DNA of 9,637 bases from a virus (taxonomy: Duplodnaviria > Heunggongvirae > Uroviricota > Caudoviricetes). Each line of letters starts with the position of its first letter. Position 1 is the stretch's first letter. The notes under the pieces were generated by a model. It searched no databases, had not been told where the DNA came from, and worked only from the letters and a program-made list of their open reading frames with translations. Positions 1 to 9,637 of this stretch are shown in pieces. Position numbers and translations under genes: made by a program. The stretch is taken from IMG/VR virus record IMGVR_UViG_2529293148_000011; one strand, written 5' to 3'.

Positions 1-54
1 CCGTCGCCAGTTGTCGTTGGTATTCTGCAACTGGCGCGTTCCGGAGTGATAGCC

Positions 55-324
55 ATGAGCGAACAGTACCTGATAACGCTCGACGAGTGGAAACCAAAAC
101 GGTTCAGTCTCCCAATAACAAACACTACCCTGGTGAAATACGGAAAACTAGGATACATCGTTCCAAGACCACAAAAAATTCGTGGGCGTTGGCTGATAGA
201 TCGCCGGGCAGTATTTGTTGGACCTGGTGAAACGGGAATTGCGCCGGAAATTCATACTGGCGATGATGATGCACTGAAGGAGATTTTAACTCATGTCACC
301 GAGGCCACGAAAAAACAGCACTGA
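55..324 (+). CDS. xis: Excisionase (Xis-like, lambda/e14 type)
   Basis: ATG at 55 preceded by GGAG at 43-46. N-terminus MSEQYLITLDEW resembles lambda Xis MYLTLQEW. Small basic protein directly upstream of int, overlapping it by 32 nt as in lambda. The frame is open back to the window edge, so a longer upstream start (track uses GTG at 46) cannot be excluded. Confidence 0.75.
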   Translation: MSEQYLITLDEWKPKRFSLPITNTTLVKYGKLGYIVPRPQKIRGRWLIDRRAVFVGPGETGIAPEIHTGDDDALKEILTHVTEATKKQH

Positions 325-1411
325 CGTAACCGGTCTTTACGAAAAGTTTGATCGCAGAACTGGCAGGGTTTACTACCAGTATAAAAACCCTGTGACTGGA
401 AAATTTCACGGTCTCGGAACAGACAAAGGCAAAGCAGAAAAAATCGCTTCCACAGCCAATCAGCGAATAGCTGCAGCAGAAGCTGAATATTTCATGCGCA
501 AAATTGATGAAAGTCCGTCAGCAACAAAACGTCGGGGCATCAGATTAAAGGCATGGGTTGATCGATATCTGAAAATACAGGACGCGCGACTGAAAAATGG
601 AGATATTGCAGCTACAACTCACAAAGAAAAAACTCGAATGGCTGCATACCTGGTTTCCCGTCTGGGAAACCACCCATTGAAAGAACTGGAAGTAAGAGAC
701 TTTGCATTAATACTGGATGAGTGGCTGGATAAAGACATGGTCAGCACAGCGAGAGTAAATCGTGGATTATGGGTTGATATTTATAAAGAAGCACAGCATG
801 CAGGGGAAGTTCCTCCTGGATGGAATCCTCCGGAGGCTACCCGTAAACCGATCCCTAAAGTAACCAGAGCCAGGCTCACCATGGAAGACTGGCAAAAAAT
901 TTACAATGCAACGCCTGAAAAACACTTTATCCGTAACGCAATGCTTCTTGCGATTGTTACTGGTCAGCGCCGTGATGACATTTGCCACATGCGTTTTTCA
1001 GATGTGTGGAACGAACACTTGCATATCACCCAGGGAAAAACCGGAATGCGTCTGGCGTTACCGCTTACACTACGCTGTGATGCCATTGGGATAACGTTAA
1101 AAGAAGTTATTGATGGGTGCCGAGACAGAATATTAAGTCCATATCTAATCCATAGTCGGCACCAGAAACAACCGAAGCCGATGAGTAAAGACAACCTGAG
1201 CGACTACTTTGCCAAAGCACGGGATCTGGCTGGGATAATTCCACCAGCAGGAAAAACTCCGCCAACATTTCATGAACAACGCTCTCTATCAGAACGGCTG
1301 TACCGTGCACAGGGTATCGATACAAAAACATTACTAGGGCATAAAGTCCAGGCAACCACCGATCGCTATAACGATACTCGAGGTCAGGAATGGGTTAAGT
1401 TGGTTATTTGA
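293..1411 (+). CDS. int: Tyrosine site-specific integrase, lambda Int family
   Basis: 372 aa. C-terminus HEQRSLSERLYRAQGIDTKTLLGHKVQATTDRYNDTRGQEWVKLVI parallels the lambda Int catalytic region (H-x-x-R, LLGH, Y) as recalled. AAGGAG lies upstream of the ATG at 293. Resembles e14 IntE from memory. Confidence 0.95.
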   Translation: MSPRPRKNSTDVTGLYEKFDRRTGRVYYQYKNPVTGKFHGLGTDKGKAEKIASTANQRIAAAEAEYFMRKIDESPSATKRRGIRLKAWVDRYLKIQDARLKNGDIAATTHKEKTRMAAYLVSRLGNHPLKELEVRDFALILDEWLDKDMVSTARVNRGLWVDIYKEAQHAGEVPPGWNPPEATRKPIPKVTRARLTMEDWQKIYNATPEKHFIRNAMLLAIVTGQRRDDICHMRFSDVWNEHLHITQGKTGMRLALPLTLRCDAIGITLKEVIDGCRDRILSPYLIHSRHQKQPKPMSKDNLSDYFAKARDLAGIIPPAGKTPPTFHEQRSLSERLYRAQGIDTKTLLGHKVQATTDRYNDTRGQEWVKLVI

Positions 1412-1474
1412 CAAACACCATATGGAATATCCGTCACCATCTCAGGAAAAAAGTGTTGTAAAATGCGTGGCCTA

Positions 1475-1510
1475 GTTTTGGGGAAACGTTTTGGAGAGAT
1501 TTTGGAGAAA
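1475..1510 (+). repeat. Three tandem direct repeats of GTTTTGGRGA (1475-1484, 1488-1497, 1500-1510); candidate integrase arm-type sites
   Basis: Read directly from the sequence, period 12-13 bp, non-coding, about 65 bp downstream of the int stop. Confidence 0.4.
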
Positions 1511-1629
1511 GGAAAAAATTGAATAAATTCAAAATCCTGAAAGTGTCCCGCCTTATGAATAAGAAGGTGAGCGAATTAGATGATTAATCCTTTATATTCA
1601 ATGCATTAAGTTTGTTTTTGAGTGGTTTT

Positions 1630-1647
1630 GCCGTTTAATGTAACGGC
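1630..1647. other. Inverted repeat GCCGTT-TAATGT-AACGGC; candidate att core
   Basis: Perfect 6-bp arms around a 6-bp AT-rich spacer, in an AT-rich region between the two clusters of GTTTTGGAGA motifs. The geometry resembles tyrosine-recombinase core sites. Confidence 0.3.
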
Positions 1648-1683
1648 GTTATAGATCCTATCAAAATCAATCAATTCCGTTCT

Positions 1684-1710
1684 GGTTTTGGAGAAAGATT
1701 TTTCGAGAGC
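1684..1710 (+). repeat. Fourth GTTTTGGAGAAAG motif copy plus a degenerate copy; candidate arm-type site on the other side of the core
   Basis: GGTTTTGGAGAAAG at 1684-1697 is identical to the third unit of the 1475-1510 cluster, in the same orientation. Confidence 0.35.
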
Positions 1711-1752
1711 TTCGGTCTTTAACTAAAACTGATTGCGTATAATCCCAATACC

Positions 1753-1782
1753 CCTCCCCGACTATCTGAATGGTCGGGGAGG
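1753..1782 (-). terminator. GC-rich hairpin (10-bp perfect stem CCTCCCCGAC/GTCGGGGAGG, 10-nt loop) downstream of the tfa remnant
   Basis: Lies 37 nt 3' of the tfa-remnant stop on the - strand. No clean U-tract follows, so it may be a decayed terminator or an RNA processing site. Confidence 0.35.
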
Positions 1783-1818
1783 CACTTCAAGCACAAAATA
1801 TCATCCCTGCGCCGTTGA

Positions 1819-2049
1819 TTACTCTGCAGGTGAAGTCGGCCACTCAATATCAGGTGCAGTTGATGTATCAACACGATTCAACAATACCCGATATTTATTC
1901 CATGCCTCCAGCAACGATCTTTCTTCCTCCTTTGCGATTTCCAGATCTACAGCATCCTGCAGTGGCGCAATATACTCACTGAATTCCTGGGTGTAGAACT
2001 GTGTGGTGACGGTCTTCCAGCCATTCGGCTCCTGCTGTATCGAAGCATA
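1819..2049 (-). pseudogene. tfa: Tail fibre assembly protein (lambda Tfa type), 3' fragment without a start
   Basis: The - strand translates as ...[53 protein letters not shown]-stop, matching the conserved lambda/e14 Tfa C-terminus. The frame is closed by TAG at 2050-2052 with no ATG or GTG, so only about 77 codons remain. Not in the ORF track because it has no start. Confidence 0.7.
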
Positions 2050-2141
2050 CTAGGCTATTTCAATATCGCTATGCTGCGGCAGCATTTAACCCCTTGTAAT
2101 TCATCGCCATAATTGATTTAATTCACAAACAAAACTATAAC

Positions 2142-2810
2142 ATGGTGAAATTAATGAAAAAAAACACAGATGATGGGGCTAAAATTTACACACCACTTAC
2201 CCTAAAGCTTTATGACTGGTGGGTTTTGGGAGTATCAAATCGGCTTGCATGGGGATGTCCTACAAAGGAATACCTTCTTCCACACTTTCTGGAACATTTA
2301 GGTAACAACCATCTGGATATTGGTGTTGGAACTGGGTTTTACCTTACTCACGTACCTGAGAGTAGTCTGATATCTTTAATGGATTTGAACGAAGCTAGCC
2401 TGAACGCGGCATCTACAAGGGCTGGGGAATCAAAAATTAAACATAAAATTAGCCATGATGTTTTTGAACCTTATCCCGCGGCGTTACATGGTCAATTTGA
2501 TTCCATTTCCATGTTTTACCTTCTTCACTGCCTGCCTGGAAATATATCTACAAAAAGCTGTGTAATACGCAATGCGGCGCAGGCCTTAACTGACGATGGA
2601 ACTCTATACGGAGCCACAATTCTTGGCGATGGAGTTGTGCACAATAGCTTCGGTCAAAAACTGATGCGCATTTACAATCAGAAAGGCATCTTTTCAAACA
2701 CAAAAGATTCCGAAGAAGGCTTAACGCATATACTCTCAGAGCATTTCGAGAATGTTAAAACCAAGGTTCAAGGTACTGTAGTAATGTTTTCCGCTTCAGG
2801 GAAAAAATAG
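2142..2810 (+). CDS. Class I SAM-dependent methyltransferase (small-molecule type), likely cargo/moron gene
   Basis: Motif I LDIGVGTG and a post-II-like FDSISMFYLLHCLP. No DPPY/NPPY or PCQ DNA-methyltransferase motifs. The ATG at 2154 has a better SD (GGTGA at 2144-2148) than the ATG at 2142. May correspond to e14 YmfD, but that is an unverified recollection. Confidence 0.8.
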   Translation: MVKLMKKNTDDGAKIYTPLTLKLYDWWVLGVSNRLAWGCPTKEYLLPHFLEHLGNNHLDIGVGTGFYLTHVPESSLISLMDLNEASLNAASTRAGESKIKHKISHDVFEPYPAALHGQFDSISMFYLLHCLPGNISTKSCVIRNAAQALTDDGTLYGATILGDGVVHNSFGQKLMRIYNQKGIFSNTKDSEEGLTHILSEHFENVKTKVQGTVVMFSASGKK

Positions 2811-2817
2811 CATCCAA

Positions 2818-2850
2818 CCGCAGCACGTTCTTGCTTAAGACGTGCTGCGG
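2818..2850 (-). terminator. Hairpin (10-bp stem CCGCAGCACG/CGTGCTGCGG, 13-nt loop) between the convergent methyltransferase gene and the pin/tfa remnant
   Basis: Lies 15 nt 3' of the - strand remnant stop. On the - strand a T-run follows after 10 nt (TTGGATGCTATTTTTT). Confidence 0.4.
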
Positions 2851-2864
2851 CATAATCCCAATGA

Positions 2865-3191
2865 TTACTCCATGACAGGGTTCGTAGGCCACTCAATATC
2901 AGGTGCAGTTGATGTATCAACACGATTCAGCAACACCCGATACTTTTTCCAGGCTTCCACCACCAGCACGACAAGATGCCGCATACAGTGACCCAGTCAG
3001 TCCAGTTTCCAGACAACCAGTGCGTCACCTTTTTGAAGGCGCTTTAAAGCACGTTTTAATCCAGGTCGGCCTGTCCTTGTTCCGCTTTATTTATCTTCAA
3101 ATATTTGTTCACATCCTGCACAAACAAGAGCGTTTCGTTGCAGGTCTGTATTCTGGTCATTTGTTGATACCCTTACATAACCAATCAGCAC
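2865..3191 (-). pseudogene. pin: Serine DNA invertase (Pin/Gin/Hin/Cin family) N-terminal remnant fused to a tfa 3' end; two in-frame stops
   Basis: From GTG at 3191..3189 (SD GGGAGA upstream) the - strand reads VLIGYVRVSTNDQNTDLQRNALVCAGCEQIFEDK[84 protein letters not shown]. The first ~77 codons match the invertase N-terminus including the catalytic-serine region. Stops are TAA at 3089..3087 and TGA at 2999..2997. The last ~31 codons are a Tfa C-terminus. Confidence 0.75.
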
Positions 3192-3245
3192 ACTGAATCT
3201 CCCGTCCAAAAGCGCAAATCATGCCATGCAGGCCGGATACGGCCA

Positions 3246-3271
3246 TTATCTAAAACCTCGGTTTACAGGAA
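3246..3271. other. Din-family invertase crossover site (gix/pix/hix-like): TTATCTAAAACC TC GGTTTACAGGAA
   Basis: Two 12-bp half-sites, TTATCnAAAACC and GGTTTACAGGAA (reverse complement TTCCTGTAAACC), around a 2-bp core; this fits gix as recalled. It sits 55 bp upstream of the pin start and abuts the orphan fibre segment. Confidence 0.6.
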
Positions 3272-3649
3272 ACGGTAAATCAGGCTTCTGGCGCATTACA
3301 GAAAAACCAGAACGGTGCAGATATTCCGGTAAAAGATACCTTCACCAAAAATATTGGTGCCTGCCGCGCATATAGAGCATGGCTGAATATTGGTGGCGAT
3401 AGTCAGATCTGGACAACCGCGCAATTTATTTCGTGGCTGGAGAGTCAGGGGGCATTTAACCATCCTTACTGGATGTGCAAAGGCTCATGGGCTTATGCAA
3501 ATAATAAGGTTATTACAGATACAGGTTGCGGAAATATTTGTCTTGCAGGTGCTGTGGTGGAAGTTATTGGCACTCGCGGCGCAATGACCATACGCGTTAC
3601 TACTCCGAGTACGTCCTGCGGCGTCTGTCGCCCATTTTTCCGAAAATAA
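3254..3649 (+). pseudogene. Orphan variable C-terminal segment of a tail fibre protein (Sv-type, Mu/P1/e14-like), no start codon
   Basis: A 132-codon open frame starts inside the crossover site: NLGLQETVNQASGALQKNQNGADIPVKDTFTKNIGACRAYRAWLNIGGDSQIWTTAQFISWLESQGAFNHPYWMCKGSWAYANNKVITDTGCGNICLAGAVVEVIGTRGAMTIRVTTPSTSCGV... This Gly/Trp/Cys-rich sequence is characteristic of invertible-segment fibre tips as recalled. A TAA at 3251-3253 inside the site closes the frame upstream. Confidence 0.5.
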
Positions 3650-3788
3650 ATGCTCCGACAATACGTGCCACATAACCTGCACCGTAGGTTCCCATTGCCA
3701 GAATTAACGCCATTGCCGTTGATGATTCAGGAAAAAATATTTCATGAAACACTAACGCTGCGCCGAGCGAATATAACTGGAAACCCAT
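3600..3788 (-). pseudogene. N-terminal fragment (TM1-TM2) of an MFS metabolite:H+ symporter-type transporter
   Basis: 62-aa ORF MGFQLYSLGAALVFHEIFFPESSTAMALILAMGTYGAGYVARIVGAFIFGKMGDRRRR... resembles the N-terminus of ShiA/ProP-type MFS proteins (ALVFNREFFP...FGHFGDRLGRKR in ShiA as recalled). An in-frame TGA lies immediately upstream of the Met, and the ORF ends inside the fibre-tip segment, so only about 60 codons of a roughly 430-codon gene remain. Confidence 0.45.
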
Positions 3789-4008
3789 GATTCATAGATA
3801 TTTTTTACCATCCTGTGGATTTCTGGGCGTTTTCTAAGTTTTTTTAAGATGGTTGTATTTTTTCTAAAAACTCCTGAACTCGATTTTGCTGTTTGTCTGA
3901 GGCCTTTTTATGTCCCATATATGCCCCAAGGTGCCCCATGTAAATCCAATTCAACTCAAAGCGTCCATGTTCAATATTTTTACAAGGGGCTGGCATATCA
4001 ATGTTTTT

Positions 4009-4584
4009 TTATTGCGTAACGTCAAACGCTCGGATTGAGCGTAAATCATCAAGATTATTCAGTTCTTCCTTCATCTCCCGCTGACGCTGATAAATCTCGT
4101 TATTGCGATCGACCTGTGCCTGCGCCATTGCTGTCGCCAGTTCTTCCAGTTCCGGCATTGACAGTTTCACCTGTTGATTATCGGCATCACCCCATGCAAG
4201 GGCGGTTAGTGCCGTATCAGATTTCGCCGCCATTACTACCGGATAAAGACGGGCCATTGAGTCGGGGCCAGCGTTCCAGGTGCGACCGTTCCATTCAAAG
4301 GTGAACGGCAGTGCTTCCTGTTCTGTGCGCCATGCCTCGATTTCCTGCTTTTTGGCATCCTTCGCCGCGGCGATAAGTTCCGGCGTGACAGTGAAAGGGG
4401 CGATTTCGCCCCATTTGCCGTTCTGCAACTCTTCCCAGATGCGCTGGCCTGTCGGTGCGGTATCATCCTGCATGGCGGTATACGGGACGAATTCCGTTTC
4501 ACCTTCAAATAACACCTCGCAGTCAACCGCACCATTTTCAAGATAATGGGCGTTTCTGATGCCCTTTACCGCTCTGATTTTCAT
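4009..4584 (-). CDS. tfa: Tail fibre assembly protein / chaperone
   Basis: 191-aa ORF starting 13 nt after the stf stop, with SD GGGGAA. Size and position immediately 3' of the side tail fibre gene match Tfa-type chaperones. The C-terminus lacks the [16 protein letters not shown] motif, so it is a different Tfa subfamily from the two remnants. Confidence 0.7.
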   Translation of the reverse strand: MKIRAVKGIRNAHYLENGAVDCEVLFEGETEFVPYTAMQDDTAPTGQRIWEELQNGKWGEIAPFTVTPELIAAAKDAKKQEIEAWRTEQEALPFTFEWNGRTWNAGPDSMARLYPVVMAAKSDTALTALAWGDADNQQVKLSMPELEELATAMAQAQVDRNNEIYQRQREMKEELNNLDDLRSIRAFDVTQ

Positions 4585-4597
4585 GTTTTATTCCCCG

Positions 4598-6721
4598 TTA
4601 CTCGATGCGCACAAACAGGCAGATACGACCGGTTATTCCTTTAGAGTCCCTGACCCCGGATAGCGCCATATAACGCCCCGGGAAAGTGTACCCTGTAGCT
4701 CCTGCACTCGGTGCGGAATTGTAGGAGCCAACCCCAGGAGAAGATATTAAGCACGAAAGATTAACTCCGCCCAGTTGTGACCCCTGCACCACATCACCCA
4801 GGCCAATATTGATTTCTTTATCCCCGAAAGTTGTTCCGCGATAAACAGCCAGCACTGGAACACCCACTGCCGGGTATTTGAAATATGAGCCTGAGCCCGC
4901 CGTCCTGGACAGCAGGAAGGCCAGCGAATCGCCGTCGTAAATAATGGGGCTTACTGTTGCATTCCAGTTGTTTCCACTAAAGCGGTAAGTCAGGAAATGA
5001 ATACTATGCTCACCTTCGTAATACTGGTTAAAACACAGCAGTGTTTTGAATTTGCGTATTGTGTCCGACTCATCGTTATCAAAGGGCGACCACATCACAT
5101 CAATGATGCCGTTAAATTTCTTGGTGCCTACCAGCAGCATGGAAGAATCCGCAAGACTGACCGCATAACGCCCCGGCGTGGCCACTTTCAGCCATTCAAC
5201 AAAATCGGCCTGCCCGTTAAATGTCAGGGCTTCGGTGCTGGCAAATGCCTGACCGAACCCATGCATACCGGACAGTGCCAGCCTGCCCGGTGCGCGGTCG
5301 CGGATATAGCTCTGGGGTTCCATCGTAGCAGCAGCTTTCAGTCCAAGCTCCGTGCGCATGTCTCCAGGCGTGTTTCGTGACAGTAATAAGCGAGCCTTGT
5401 TGCTGCATGGAATTGCTTTTGCCTCAAAGTTATCACCAAAATAAAGGAGAGAGTTTTGTCCCACCCCTACCTTGCTGATATTGGTTAACGTATTGTTAAG
5501 CGGCTGTTTACCTGCCAGTGCTTTAGTAACCGTTGTCGCAAAGTTCGGGTCATTGCCCAGCGCTGCTGCCAGCTCGTTCAGCGTGTCCAGGGCTTCCGGT
5601 GACGAGTCAACCAGCGCAGCAAGCAGTTTGCGAACAAATGCCGCGTTCGCTGTTTCCAGACCGGCAGCATCGTCCGGTGGGGTTGGTGTGGTGGGTGTGC
5701 CGGTGAATGCCGGGCTGTCCAGCGGCGCTTTTGTTTTCGTCTCGTCCATGACGGTTTTGACGGCTTTTGGTGTGGCTGCCAGTTCCTCGCTGTCGTTGTC
5801 TGTATCACTACAGAGTTGCACCAGGCCTTTTTCTGTTGTGGAAGCATTGCTTCCCTTCAGGTCATCAACAATCCGTTGCGCCTCGTCCCTGTGCTGTTTC
5901 GCTTCCTGCGCATTGCCTGCGCTCGCATCCTGGCTGGCCTTCGCCTGCCGGGCGTATTCGGCAGCGTTATTTTCATGGCCCAGCGCAACATTTGCCGCAT
6001 TTTCTGCACTGGTCGCAGCCAAAGATGCTGCTTCCTTATACTGACTGGCGCGTCCGGCTGCATCAACCGATTCATTCCGCGCTGCCCCTGATGCCTGAGC
6101 ACTGTTTTCTGCCTCATTCGCAAAACGCTCTGCGTCATCACGGGCCGTTTCGGTTGCTGTCACATCCTGTGCAGTCTGTTGTGCGCTTCCGGCTGCATTA
6201 TCAGCGTGACTTTTTGCGTTCTGCTCGCTTTTTGCAGCCGCTTCGGCGCTCTGCTGTGCCTGATTTTTCAGCTCTTCTGCCTTATTTTTACTGTCAAGAG
6301 CAGAGGTCGCTGCGTTTGTTGCTGTATCCGCTGCCGACTCTGCTCTTTTACGGTCATCAGTGACCTGCTCTGACTGCCGGGTAACTGCATCCACCATTTC
6401 CTCAAAACGCTTCATCACCTCCGGACGTAAATCACCATCCTTTGGTGCATCCAGAAACGCGTTCAGTGTCCCAGGTGTGTCAGTCGGTGCCACATAAATA
6501 TCCCCGACACGGGTTGGCTGCCAGCCGTTACGGTTAAGCGCAACCTCGTAATACCCCGGCTCAGCCTCAATCACATAAGCACCGTTATTGTCCGTCACAC
6601 AAGTGGCGACAACGTGTGCCACAACGGTCGGACTGGTTCTTCTGGCCCGCAGTTCAATCGCACAATTTACGACAGGCTTACCCGCCCCGTCTTTCAGCAC
6701 ACCTGAAATCTTTACTGCCAT
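4598..6721 (-). CDS. stf: Side tail fibre protein (lambda Stf-like)
   Basis: N-terminus MAVKISGVLKDGAGKPV matches lambda Stf. A long Ala/Ser/Gln/Glu-rich shaft is followed by LAATPKAVKTVMDETKTKAPLDSPAFTGTP...LNELAAALGNDPNFATTVTKALAGKQP, a conserved Stf region. The likely start is ATG 6721..6719 (GGGG SD); the track's GTG at 6727 is two codons upstream. Confidence 0.9.
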   Translation of the reverse strand: MAVKISGVLKDGAGKPVVNCAIELRARRTSPTVVAHVVATCVTDNNGAYVIEAEPGYYEVALNRNGWQPTRVGDIYVAPTDTPGTLNAFLDAPKDGDLRPEVMKRFEEMVDAVTRQSEQVTDDRKRAESAADTATNAATSALDSKNKAEELKNQAQQSAEAAAKSEQNAKSHADNAAGSAQQTAQDVTATETARDDAERFANEAENSAQASGAARNESVDAAGRASQYKEAASLAATSAENAANVALGHENNAAEYARQAKASQDASAGNAQEAKQHRDEAQRIVDDLKGSNASTTEKGLVQLCSDTDNDSEELAATPKAVKTVMDETKTKAPLDSPAFTGTPTTPTPPDDAAGLETANAAFVRKLLAALVDSSPEALDTLNELAAALGNDPNFATTVTKALAGKQPLNNTLTNISKVGVGQNSLLYFGDNFEAKAIPCSNKARLLLSRNTPGDMRTELGLKAAATMEPQSYIRDRAPGRLALSGMHGFGQAFASTEALTFNGQADFVEWLKVATPGRYAVSLADSSMLLVGTKKFNGIIDVMWSPFDNDESDTIRKFKTLLCFNQYYEGEHSIHFLTYRFSGNNWNATVSPIIYDGDSLAFLLSRTAGSGSYFKYPAVGVPVLAVYRGTTFGDKEINIGLGDVVQGSQLGGVNLSCLISSPGVGSYNSAPSAGATGYTFPGRYMALSGVRDSKGITGRICLFVRIE

Positions 6722-6732
6722 ATTCACCCCAC

Positions 6733-6758
6733 AAAAAAGCCCGCCTGAACCGGCGGGC
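6733..6758 (-). terminator. Rho-independent terminator downstream of lom
   Basis: On the - strand: GCCCGCC-GGTTCA-GGCGGGC followed by TTTTTT, between the lom stop (6786) and the stf start (6721). Confidence 0.65.
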
Positions 6759-6785
6759 TGTCATAACACTGTGTTACCTGGCTAA

Positions 6786-7397
6786 TCAGAACTTATAACC
6801 GACACCCACGATGAAACCGTCAGTGCGCCAGTCACCACTGCCGGAGCCTTCATAAGCAAGGTCAATAGTCACCGTTTCTGCCGGGCTGAACTGAAGACCC
6901 GCACCCCATGCCAGCGACAGGTGTCGTGCGGTATAGCCATCACTGGCGGTGGTCGTCTCCTTCACATACCCCGGTTTCAATTCATCACGTCGGTAATCCT
7001 GAACACTGTCAGACCAGCGGGTGTAAGCCATCCCAGCCGTGCCATAGAGACTGACCTGCTCACTGACCTGCCAGACAGGGCCGGCCATCAGACTCACATA
7101 ACGACCGCGCAGGCTTTCATAATGGAGCGTATTTTCACCCGTCTTCATCGTGTCGCTTTTTTTCGCCGACGCATAACTCAGCGAAACAATACCACCCGCA
7201 TGGTCCGTGAATTCATAACGGTATTTCACGTTAATCCCTTTTAAATCACCTGTACGGGCACCGGTACCGGACAATGCCGGCACGCCGCCCGGGTGAACCT
7301 GAGCATATCCCACGGAAAACGCACCGTGTCCGACTTCAGCCTGCGCAGGAAGGGCCATTCCTGCCAGAAAAGCGACAAAAAATAAAATATGGCGCAT
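6786..7397 (-). CDS. lom: Lom-like outer membrane protein (Ail/Lom/PagC family)
   Basis: 203 aa with a signal peptide (MRHILFFVAFLAGMALPAQA). The body and C-terminus (LAYEGSGSGDWRTDGFIVGVGYKF) closely match lambda Lom as recalled. SD GAGAGG precedes the ATG. Confidence 0.9.
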   Translation of the reverse strand: MRHILFFVAFLAGMALPAQAEVGHGAFSVGYAQVHPGGVPALSGTGARTGDLKGINVKYRYEFTDHAGGIVSLSYASAKKSDTMKTGENTLHYESLRGRYVSLMAGPVWQVSEQVSLYGTAGMAYTRWSDSVQDYRRDELKPGYVKETTTASDGYTARHLSLAWGAGLQFSPAETVTIDLAYEGSGSGDWRTDGFIVGVGYKF

Positions 7398-7421
7398 GAT
7401 TACCTCTCGTTTTCAGTCAAT

Positions 7422-7445
7422 AAAAAAGGCACCGCTTCGGGTGCC
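7422..7445 (-). terminator. Rho-independent terminator between J and lom
   Basis: On the - strand: GGCACC-CGAAGC-GGTGCC stem-loop followed by TTTTTT, 20 nt 3' of the J stop. Confidence 0.55.
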
Positions 7446-7464
7446 CCTCCGGGTTAATAAATCG

Positions 7465-9637
7465 TCAGCTGATACTGATTCCTGCCGTGGATTTTTTCAT
7501 GACCACCACCAGTAAATCGCTGATGTACGTTGTCGGCGTCCATTTGTTCGCGCCGGTCGACGACACATTAAACGTCAGGGTGACATGACCCCGTCCTGCC
7601 GGCATATCTATCACCGATGAGAACACCCGGCTGACATCCGTTGCCGGTTCATGGAAAATCTCAGCCCCGTTTTTAAACACCTGCAGCTTGCAGGTGGAAT
7701 ACCAGTATGACTGTTGGTTATGACTGTTGAAATTCTGGTGTTTCGTACCACGAAATAATACCGGCGGAATGATAATCTGCCGGTCGAATCCCTGATCATC
7801 ATAAACCGTGACGGTTATAGTGCCACTGGCATAACTTCCATTTCGCGGGAAAGCCTTACCCACCGTTTTGACAATATCGCCTTCAATCTGGCTGGCTGAC
7901 AGTTTTCCAAGGATCCGGCAGTTCTGATTAATCGTGACGTTGTTGAGCGTCCCGGAATTCGCATTCACGTTACCGCTGATATCAGCATTTCTCGCCGTCA
8001 GCCGCCCGTCCGGTGTCATGGAGAATGCCGGAGGATTACCGGATGACGTGATGCTCACCGCAAATAGTCGCTTCAGGAACACGTCGTTCATGAACAGCTG
8101 ATTCCCCTGCGCCACAAACAGCGGCGTGGTGTTACCGTTCTCCGGGGTAATCATCGCAATGCGATCGGCCTGCAGCAGAATGTTACTCAGGGTCTGACCA
8201 TCAACATCCTCAATCCCTGCACCAATACCGGCCACATAGGGAATACCGTTTTTTGTTTTCTGCACCTTCAGCATATACATGGCATTCAGCTCATTGCGCG
8301 TGTCTGACTGAACCCGCTGGATTTGCTGTATGGTCACGGCCTGGTCACCCAGCTTTTTATCCGTGGTCGAGGTAATTTCACTCCCTTTTTTATCCACGTA
8401 CTGGCGGACCTGTGCTATCTGTCGGGCGTTTTCTGACTGCCCCTGGCTGACAGTCTGTGAGATTTCACTGCTCACCCGGTCCACTTTCTGGTTCACCTGC
8501 GCGATGGCCAGTGCCTGGTCCTCATTCTTTTTCGCAACCAGCTGCGTGAGAGTGTTTTCCGCCTTCCCGATTTTCCGGGTCACTTCTGCGATATCCGTGT
8601 CCATCCGCTGACGGATGTCTTCTTCCAGTTGCGTGACCTCCGTACGCAGCGCTGAAGCATCAATGCGCTCTTTCAGTGCCTGACCAAGAAGCGTCTCATC
8701 TATCAGCCCCCGGAAAATTTCCAGATACCCTTCACCATCATTGCTGGGCTGCCCGCTGGCTTCCACAAAAGCAGATTTTCCCACCAGGTTGACGCTTCGC
8801 ACGTAAAACCAGAAATCCGTCCCCGGCTTAATCCGGCTCCCCTGGACAGTCCACTGACTGCCGGCCCCCAGATAACGGGCAGATTTTTCCACCTGTGCTG
8901 TGTTCGTGATGCGTTTTTCTGAGAACCAGAATTCAAACTGTACCGTCGGGTCATACACCGCAAGACGCGGGACCGCCGTTATCTGAAAATACCCCGGCGT
9001 CAGCTCAATGGTGGCGGGTTTTGCAGGTGCGTTAATCCGGAAGGTGGTGGTGGCAGGATCGCCCTGCTGTCCCCACGCATTTACCGCCCGGACTGTCAGC
9101 CTGTAGTTCCCCAGCGCCAGTTGTGTGAAGCGGTAAGTGGTTTCCGTCGTCCGGGCCGTGCTGACCAGCCGCTCACTGCCGTCATCCGCTGTTACAGTCA
9201 GGCGAAGCAGGAAGCTCACGCCCTTCACCACCTTCGGCGTGTCCCAGCGGGCCAGTACCTGATACTCCCCGCTGTCTGCAGTGACTTCGGCAGTCAGGTG
9301 CTGCACCGCTGGCGGCGTGACACCATTCACCGTGCCGCTCTGGTCGCCGTCAAAGTGCGCCCCGTTATCCACGATGGCTTCTTTTTCCGGTACATGCTGC
9401 ACGGCAGTGATGGCATGCGTGCCGTCATCGTTCTCACGAATACTCACACAGCGGAACAGGCGCTGGCGCAACGTCGGCAGCTTCAGCCCCCATACGCTGT
9501 ATTCAGCAACACCGTCAGGAACACGGCTCACTTTTACCTTCACGCCGTCGGTGACGGACTGAACCTCCACGCTGACCGGATTGCCACTTCCGTCAACCAG
9601 GCTTATCAGCGTGGTACCGGAGGATGGCAGCGTGATT
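7465..9637 (-). CDS. J: Host specificity / central tail fibre protein J (C-terminal ~720 codons; 5' end lies beyond the window)
   Basis: The frame is open from the window edge (9637) to the stop at 7465. A long beta-rich protein immediately upstream of lom-stf-tfa, as in lambda. The C-terminus ...[14 protein letters not shown] is in the receptor-binding region. Confidence 0.9.

Follow-up and report, generated by a model that had tools for sequence, protein, structure and literature searches.

The side tail fibre genes of lambdoid phages follow a common plan. Stf/Tfa of Ur-lambda, StfR/TfaR of the Rac prophage, and StfQ/TfaQ of the Qin prophage all lie after J-lom, carry PF08400 and Phage_fiber_2, and have a small helper gene directly downstream. 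In experiments, lambda took up stf/tfa DNA of the prophages Qin and Rac at ~2e-6 per phage (PMC3945230). Other phages alternate two fibre tips by DNA inversion, as exemplified by the G segment of Mu with Gin, the C segment of P1/P7 with Cin, and the P segment of e14 with Pin. A further group of helpers, the DUF4376 proteins encoded directly after fibre genes, is a separate and experimentally supported chaperone class in the Alteromonas phages V22 and A5 (PMC7289586, PMC10579305), and the requirement of the fibre for folding or trimerisation assistance has been demonstrated by experiment only for V22 gp27 (PMC7289586). That fibres are mosaic, are exchanged in association with invertases, and are acquired from cryptic prophages is established and is textbook matter in the evolution of lambdoid and Mu/P1/P2 fibres. 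Here we describe how these elements come together in the IMG/VR virus record IMGVR_UViG_2529293148_000011, a stretch of 9,637 nucleotides (nt) from a Caudoviricetes phage (the window), whose locus at positions 1819-6721 comprises an stf gene, its helper gene, and a lambda-style non-essential b-region.

The window contains four layers from three unrelated module types: the lambda-type Caudo_TAP module, the Mu-type invertible G segment, and a DUF4376-type pair. The stf and DUF4376 genes are the only functional fibre genes of the present side tail fibre. Taken as a whole, the best explanation, and in our judgment a highly probable one, is that the region is the b-region of a live lambdoid temperate phage and that the stretch from the DUF4376 gene to attP consists wholly of earlier modules, stacked and inactivated. 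A fragment of the host gene ydfJ is the one fresh element, and it probably marks the capture of the DUF4376-type cassette from a Qin-site prophage. As a record of past fibre swaps, the locus reflects well-known phage mosaicism and no new mechanism, and annotations of its older layers already exist in K-12 and RefSeq. It is nonetheless a clean, datable example of a temperate phage changing its receptor-binding equipment, for which intermediate states survive in other genomes and a 165-bp ydfJ scrap hints at where in the chromosome the last donor lay.

Three states of the locus can be compared. In PhiR29_2, a full lambda-type stf-tfa is followed by ybcY and then by a tfa remnant (tfaX). In E. 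coli E1433, the arrangement is potB / tfaX / ybcY / tfa'::gin' / gix / Sv' U' U Sv-stf with an stf of lambda type, and this genome is collinear with window positions 1556-3621 at 97.7% identity, sharing both the potB site and the truncated gin. The window itself represents the third state, in which the DUF4376 pair stands in front of the truncated S'. Because these states nest, we infer from the alignments that lambda-type modules (tfaX, then the tfaD type) probably came first, followed by the Mu-type module and then by the DUF4376-type pair.

The features of the window are collected in Table 1. The four features listed in a preliminary description of the sequence, namely a fibre-helper pair, two tfa remnants, and an orphan fibre tip, lie at or near the positions proposed for them and are supported by statistics far beyond chance (Pfam, PHROG, and BLASTP). 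To these we add a gin pseudogene, a single gix site, a ybcY-like methyltransferase gene, and the ydfJ fragment.

Table 1. Features of the window, with positions counted from its first nucleotide
Feature	Position	Strand	Basis and remarks
xis (excisionase)	55..324	+	Pfam Exc PF07825, E 7.8e-5; alternative start GTG at 46
int (lambda-type tyrosine integrase)	293..1411	+	PF09003, E 4e-21; PF00589, E 1.6e-18
attP common core TGAATAAGAAGGTG, 14 bp	1556..1569		overlap of the int/potC-side and potB/tfaX-side matches
tfa remnant 1, C-terminal 76 aa	1819..2049	-	Caudo_TAP positions 77-131, E 4.6e-24; counterpart of K-12 DLP12 tfaX
YbcY homologue, class I S-adenosylmethionine (SAM)-dependent methyltransferase, 222 aa, intact	2142..2810	+	Pfam Methyltransf_12/23/25/11; phrog_2132 full length, E 3.5e-156
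Hairpin	2818..2850		between the convergent methyltransferase gene and tfa remnant 2; -23 kcal/mol, z -4.9, 0/200 shuffles fold as well
tfa remnant 2, last 32 codons of a lambda/DLP12 tfaD-type gene	2865..2962	-	Caudo_TAP positions 104-130, E 5.1e-13; fused in frame to the gin remnant
gin/pin-type serine invertase pseudogene	2957..3191	-	Resolvase PF00239, E 6.5e-21; codons 1 to ~77 of ~190 left, two in-frame stops
gix-type crossover site TTATCTAAAACCTCGGTTTACAGGAA, 26 bp, single	3246..3271		one mismatch to both Mu gix copies
Mu S'-type variable fibre fragment, residues 9-131 of 328	3254..3623	+	96% aa identity to Mu S'
ydfJ (host gene) fragment, first 55 codons of the K-12 style open reading frame (ORF), 165 bp	3624..3788	-	162/165 nt and 54/55 aa identical to K-12
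Right end of ydfJ (Qin)-site prophage	3789..4008		RefSeq DinI-like remnant in E423
DUF4376-type tail-fibre chaperone, 191 aa, intact	4009..4584	-	PF14301, E 2.1e-17; phrog_1141, E 8e-90
stf (side tail fibre), 707 aa, intact	4598..6721	-	PF08400, E 6.8e-43; PF03406, E 1.6e-15; phrog_2636 end to end
Conserved island, lom 3' end and stf 5' end, 232 bp	6687..6918		identity high, both flanks diverged
lom (Ail/Lom outer-membrane protein)	6786..7397	-	ORF; Pfam Ail_Lom matches the identical genes in eight draft genomes
J (tail-tip gene), 3' part	7465..9637	-	runs off the window

Relics of lambda-type and Mu-type fibre modules

Both tfa remnants share the conserved lambda-type Tfa C-terminal motif, as read from their translations. 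Over 60 amino acids (aa), remnant 1 is 75% identical to lambda Tfa, and over 54 aa it is 81% identical to TfaQ/TfaR. Remnant 2 exhibits 90% aa identity to the lambda Tfa C-terminus (BLASTP), and bases 2816-2962 match lambda tfa and its downstream region at 86% nt identity. Neither remnant amounts to a full-length Tfa (~175-200 aa with an N-terminal domain), as only 76 and 32 codons are left; full-length counterparts are present in PhiR29_2 and DLP12. The remnants had been described as lambda/e14-type. The lambda-type assignment holds, as the closest relatives of both are from lambda, Rac, Qin, and DLP12 (75-90% aa identity by BLASTP), but e14 TfaP is more distant at 55-57%.

Between the two remnants, on the opposite strand, lies the intact methyltransferase gene. 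It is equivalent to the ybcY pseudogene of DLP12, and the ybcY-like gene is a moron, i.e., an accessory gene dispensable for phage growth. The tfaD-ybcY-tfaX end of DLP12, a cryptic prophage of K-12, has these three elements in the same order and orientation. Positions 1839-2962 of the window (1124 bp) are 96.7% identical in nt to the DLP12 tfaX-ybcY-tfaD 3' end and 98.5-99% identical to the phages PhiR29_2, PhiR30_1, and 2G7b. DLP12 differs in that ybcY is a pseudogene there but encodes an intact protein of 222 aa in the window, and in that its tfaD is 187 aa long, whereas only the last 32 codons remain in the window, joined to gin'. In PhiR29_2, a full-length tfa occupies the position of remnant 2, after a 2.9-kb lambda-type stf. 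A literature search on tfaX/ybcY found nothing relevant.

Given that the two tfa remnants are 90% identical to each other over 79 nt, it might be proposed that the remnants are decayed copies of the phage's own stf and chaperone genes. Such internal duplication has almost no chance of being correct, because neither tfa remnant resembles the intact DUF4376 gene, each has a better match in its DLP12 counterpart (96.7%) than in the other remnant, and the S' fragment is 96% identical to Mu S' versus ~35% local identity to the current Stf region. It is excluded by BLASTP placement of the fragments against lambda, Rac, Qin, e14, Mu, and DLP12, in which the fragments proved not to be closest to each other or to the intact pair. 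The earlier reading of the fragments as remains of former modules is partly upheld, as they are copies neither of one another nor of that pair. What cannot be retained is the idea that these modules are preserved as receptor-binding units, because no remnant holds a receptor-binding domain.

The Mu-type relic carries the 5' part of gin, a gix site, and the 5' part of S' in Mu order and orientation. Positions 3001-3623 are 94.7% identical in nt to Mu, from inside gin through the G-segment boundary into S'. The gin frame starts at 3191, and its product has 88% aa identity to Mu Gin residues 2-77. At ~2956-2962 it joins the last 32 codons of tfa in frame, with ~4-5 bp of microhomology, and this gin'::tfa junction occurs in 536 of the 5426 complete E. 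coli genomes searched. By tblastn, the S' fragment matches P88 (96.7%), Mu (95.9%), P7 (Sv, 91%), and P1 (71.5%); its identity to P2 H is 66%. The preliminary description had placed an orphan fibre tip of an invertible-segment type at 3254-3649. The type is confirmed, but S' homology ends at 3623, and bases 3624-3649 are the antisense strand of the ydfJ fragment. As judged from the alignment with Mu S', the fragment is the proximal part of that segment, and the receptor-binding end is missing.

A Gin-like coding sequence, a near-consensus gix site, and an S'-type frame without its own start codon, all in the Mu arrangement, might be read as a working host-range switch that alternates two tips in the manner of Mu G, P1 C, or e14 P. 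We give this reading practically no credence. The window lacks an intact invertase of ~185-195 aa, two inverted sites, and two variable ends with U and U': gin is cut at codon ~77 and bears two stops, U, U', and two thirds of S' are gone, and the current stf is without a gix site. No second gix site was found in the window at three or fewer mismatches, the next best match having at least nine, and 0 of 200 shuffled sequences gave a match. An active inversion switch is excluded for the window by its dead invertase, its single gix, and the absence of U and U'. E1433 keeps both gix copies as well as both variable ends and their assembly genes. The relic also differs from the Mu G segment in lacking Sv, and in sitting in the b-region of a lambdoid siphovirus, whereas the Mu-type original is found in a myovirus. 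When gin' of the window (3087-3191) is compared with that of E1433 (L001, 4442-4636), an extra nonsense codon (codon 34, TAA) is seen in the window and is absent from E1433; decay therefore went on after the shared truncation.

The hairpin near the end of tfa remnant 2 is also present downstream of lambda tfa and in Rac and Qin, and it may be a bidirectional terminator. A promoter/terminator scan of 1400-4700 performed no better than on shuffled sequence, and a promoter-like site at 2086-2113 near the methyltransferase gene is likewise not above chance. Perhaps selection keeps the remnants, with the tfa 3' ends, gix, and the hairpin serving as landing pads, terminators, or regulators for ybcY or the late operon. 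The tfa 3' ends that flank ybcY are 97-99% conserved across phages, the hairpin after the tfa end is strong and conserved, and invertase-driven tail-fibre exchange has been proposed in the literature (PMC3945230). Against this, gin' is still decaying, with one more stop than in E1433, the scan gave nothing above shuffles, and the high identity could simply reflect recent spread. We consider selection of this kind improbable.

The present fibre pair and its junction with ydfJ

The preliminary description had recognized an intact stf-tfa pair at 4009-6721. The pair is indeed intact, and the 191-aa ORF ends in ...LRSIRAFDVTQ as reported, but the helper is a DUF4376 protein (PF14301) and no Tfa. 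Its PF14301 score is 63.9 bits against a gathering cut-off of 25. It gave no Caudo_TAP (PF02413) match at E <= 0.01 in Pfam, where control Tfa proteins match Caudo_TAP at E 1e-36 to 1e-43, and no BLASTP match at E <= 0.01 to the Tfa/U proteins of lambda, Rac, Qin, e14, or Mu. The ORF therefore belongs to a different family and is not a variant Tfa.

The DUF4376 gene starts 14 bp past the stf stop codon, and the same pairing of a fibre tip with a DUF4376 gene is seen in Rac-SA53, phiP27, A36, and 06-00048. As in Alteromonas phages V22 (gp27) and A5 (gp9), the DUF4376 domain occupies the C-terminal half of the protein, whose gene follows immediately on the fibre gene. Those phages are remote in host and type, and the window presents the E. 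coli lambdoid version. By analogy of family and gene position, it is reasonable to propose that the DUF4376 protein might help the fibre tip to fold and trimerise. A PDB sequence search with the DUF4376 protein gave no match. Identical copies of the protein are recorded in 215 blocks of the assembly collection.

The DUF4376 gene itself has a mosaic structure. Its N-terminal 78 aa are 95-100% identical to those of A36, where the tip is 76% identical, and only 45-47% identical to those of E423, which has a different fibre. Residues 79-160 are 85-95% conserved across all relatives compared, and the last ~30 aa track the ydfJ-site flank. Thus, the N-terminal part varies with the tip and the end with the downstream flank, around a conserved middle. 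This pattern suggests that the N-terminal part might recognize the tip, and it also suggests that a homologous crossover could have occurred inside the conserved DUF4376 domain.

By its PF08400 N-terminal domain and its place after J-lom, the fibre protein is a lambda-type side tail fibre. Its lambda-type N-terminal domain spans residues 1-134. Next come a shaft rich in Ala and a Phage_fiber_2 repeat (295-334), and the tip, which begins at about residue 420, contains no known domain. The lambda/Rac/Qin-type tip ending in ...NIAFNYIVRLA was not found, as Stf beyond residue ~462 is unlike lambda orf314, StfR, and StfQ by BLASTP. The protein therefore combines the lambda-type plan with a tip (last ~290 aa) unrelated to lambda Stf and a DUF4376 rather than a Caudo_TAP helper. 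Over its C-terminal 381 aa, the protein shares 76% identity with A36 Stf, the tip is 28-35% identical at best to GenBank phages, and a PDB sequence search with Stf gave no match past residue 422.

A lambda-type fibre stem with a tip that would depend on a DUF4376 helper is of practical relevance for fibre annotation and engineering, as public records at present give the helper and tip such names as 'DUF4376 protein', 'tail fiber protein', or 'shikimate transporter'. Homologues of the tip (window 4598-5467; also L003, 4070-6160) are very often entered in NCBI/RefSeq as 'shikimate transporter, partial', which has the look of a wrong name for a phage fibre tip that has spread from record to record. 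A separate observation concerns the Ala-rich shaft, where window 6064-6182 shows a 135-bp (45-aa) indel polymorphism: four of eight related prophages lack the stretch, and their Stf is 662 rather than 707 aa long.

Downstream of the pair, the ydfJ fragment offers a sign of where the pair came from. The ydfJ gene directly flanks the Qin attachment site, and the match runs on into the end of Qin. Positions 3624-4347 are 96% identical in nt to E. coli E423, where the order is ydfJ / DinI-like / DUF4376, and positions 3624-3929 are 89.6% identical to K-12. These matches suggest a prophage at ydfJ as the source of the fibre and chaperone genes now in place, and the phage that now carries the ydfJ scrap resides ~450 kb from that gene. 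The likeness to lambda-bio-type pick-up is evident, in that host DNA beside a prophage att site ends up inside a phage genome.

The junction between S' and ydfJ (3623|3624) has no visible microhomology. It is present in two IMG/VR contigs and at least eight draft genomes, and its carriers include a lineage that is ~2% divergent and has the 45-aa indel in the Stf shaft. Because the junction occurs in eight draft assemblies, two IMG/VR contigs, and a diverged lineage, we regard it as real. Nevertheless, it was found in none of the 5426 complete E. coli genomes, nor in the GTDB species-representative genomes, and the window joins int and tail ends that are ~45 kb apart in an integrated single prophage. 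These facts would be expected if the ydfJ junction were an assembly chimera or if the window joined two neighbouring prophages. Against an artefact of either kind, the junction lies within an 8-kb collinear match in eight independent NCBI drafts and the two IMG/VR contigs, the whole block occurs in one potB-flanked prophage in draft genomes, and the int-att-tfaX adjacency is that expected of attP, with its 14-bp overlap core. An artefact is accordingly very improbable, and the independent assemblies, together with the single-prophage context, exclude both a chimera and two prophages placed side by side.

A proposed history of the locus

The nested states are consistent with the following course of events. 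How widely the junctions are spread also bears on the age of the layers: gin'::tfa is carried by 536 of 5426 complete E. coli genomes and S'|ydfJ, the newest junction, by none of them. A lambda-type tfa would first have been cut down to tfaX on the arrival of an stf-tfa-ybcY block. The fibre end would then have been replaced by a Mu-type invertible segment (Sv-U-U'-Sv'-gin), and a later deletion would have fused gin, at codon ~77, to the final 32 codons of tfa, thereby freezing the switch. Finally, the Mu-type module would have been replaced by an stf/DUF4376 block from a prophage in ydfJ through two crossovers, one homologous and upstream in the tail genes, the other illegitimate and running from ydfJ to S'. 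The illegitimate crossover would have brought in the 165 bp of ydfJ and, at the same time, removed Sv, U, and U' along with two thirds of Sv'.

The homologous crossover is likely to have taken place in the conserved island at 6687-6918. This is an obvious candidate because it has ~92% identity to E1433, Rac, PhiR29_2, and PhiR30_1 (88% to 2G7b) while both of its flanks diverge, and it looks like a recombination hot spot or a module boundary. Recombination at conserved fibre linkers had been suggested as the mechanism of replacement, but it does not describe the junctions that can be seen: gin'|tfa, S'|ydfJ, and the 5' edge of tfaX are all illegitimate, with 0-5 bp of microhomology. In the lambda-Qin and lambda-Rac recombinants (De Paepe et al. 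2014, PMC3945230), a temperate phage likewise takes tail-fibre DNA from a resident Qin-site prophage, but both crossovers are homologous there. The window differs in that its distal junction is illegitimate, lacks microhomology, and carries the 165 bp of host DNA.

Several points weigh against this history. The proximal homologous crossover, which probably lay at 6687-6918 and/or inside the DUF4376 domain, cannot be placed. For 4347-6700, which takes in stf and the 5' half of the DUF4376 gene, the search gave no donor of 95% identity or more; the best match is A36 at ~85% nt identity, several lambdoid prophages reach ~80%, and a donor at the ydfJ site is therefore indicated by 3624-4347 alone. 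The predicted structure of the Stf tip is poor (predicted local distance difference test, pLDDT, of 68) and has no confident structural match, and the proposed chaperone role of the DUF4376 protein is an analogy from family and position. In addition, the tfaX-ybcY-tfa block is 97-99% identical in unrelated lambdoids (DLP12, PhiR29_2, and 2G7b), and the older layers may have arrived as one block, without stepwise deposition in this lineage.

This last point leads to a distinct alternative, in which the whole tfaX-ybcY-tfa'::gin'-gix-S' series was assembled in other phages and arrived ready-made, and only the DUF4376/ydfJ replacement happened here. The 96.7-99% identity of tfaX-ybcY-tfa among the otherwise different DLP12, PhiR29_2, PhiR30_1, and 2G7b agrees with this idea, as do the many complete genomes that carry the gin'::tfa junction (536, as above) and the fact that E1433 already has all of the older layers at the same integration site. 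Even so, the layers needed successive replacements somewhere, which means that this alternative changes the place of the events and not their kind. Moreover, the potB site shared by E1433 and the window and their 97.7% identity over 1556-3621 fit vertical descent of the b-region in one lineage. We therefore regard block inheritance as possible but doubtful, and retain serial replacement as the preferred history. The 'stacked generations' of the preliminary description can be kept in the sense that the states nest and three module types are present, with the reservation that the two oldest layers were perhaps inherited together as a block.

It is also tempting to speculate that the tfa 3' ends, the lone gix, and the lom-stf island are retained as recombination landing pads, such that the b-region acts both as an acceptor and as an archive of cassettes. 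If true, whole fibre and chaperone cassettes would be captured from resident prophages at a raised rate, including cassettes with another chaperone class and flanking host DNA. We give this notion only a slim chance.

Integration site and attP

In order, the window runs J–lom–stf–chaperone–b-region–attP–int–xis and is part of a lambdoid phage whose integration site lies between potB and potC. The identical integrase protein adjoins potC-potD in all 10 of the genomic contexts listed, and the exact 191-aa DUF4376 protein belongs to prophages whose tail end abuts potB-potA-pepT in all eight of the contexts listed. On the int/potC side, window positions 1-1569 match three loci at 99.6-99.9% identity. 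On the potB side, positions 1556-9637 are collinear with eight draft genomes at 97.9-99.96% identity, beside potB-potA-pepT. The two matches overlap by 14 bp, and the att core TGAATAAGAAGGTG is therefore placed at 1556-1569. In E1433, the 3' end of potB corresponds to window bases 1556-1587, which replace the potB 3' end. The window is thus the attP form, as found in an excised or circular phage genome or in a tandem lysogen.

The J protein is 1233 aa long in the eight draft genomes, and window positions 8713-9637 are 85.7% identical to lambda J. None of the 5426 complete E. coli genomes contains 80% or more of the window. The xis homologues in JB2 and RM10809-3 are named excisionase by RefSeq. 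In both of these complete genomes, JB2 (L008, 4055-6946) and RM10809-3 (L009, 4055-6350), the same xis-int lies directly beside a tail-fibre end, as it does in the window, which suggests that they carry tandem or rearranged prophages at this site.

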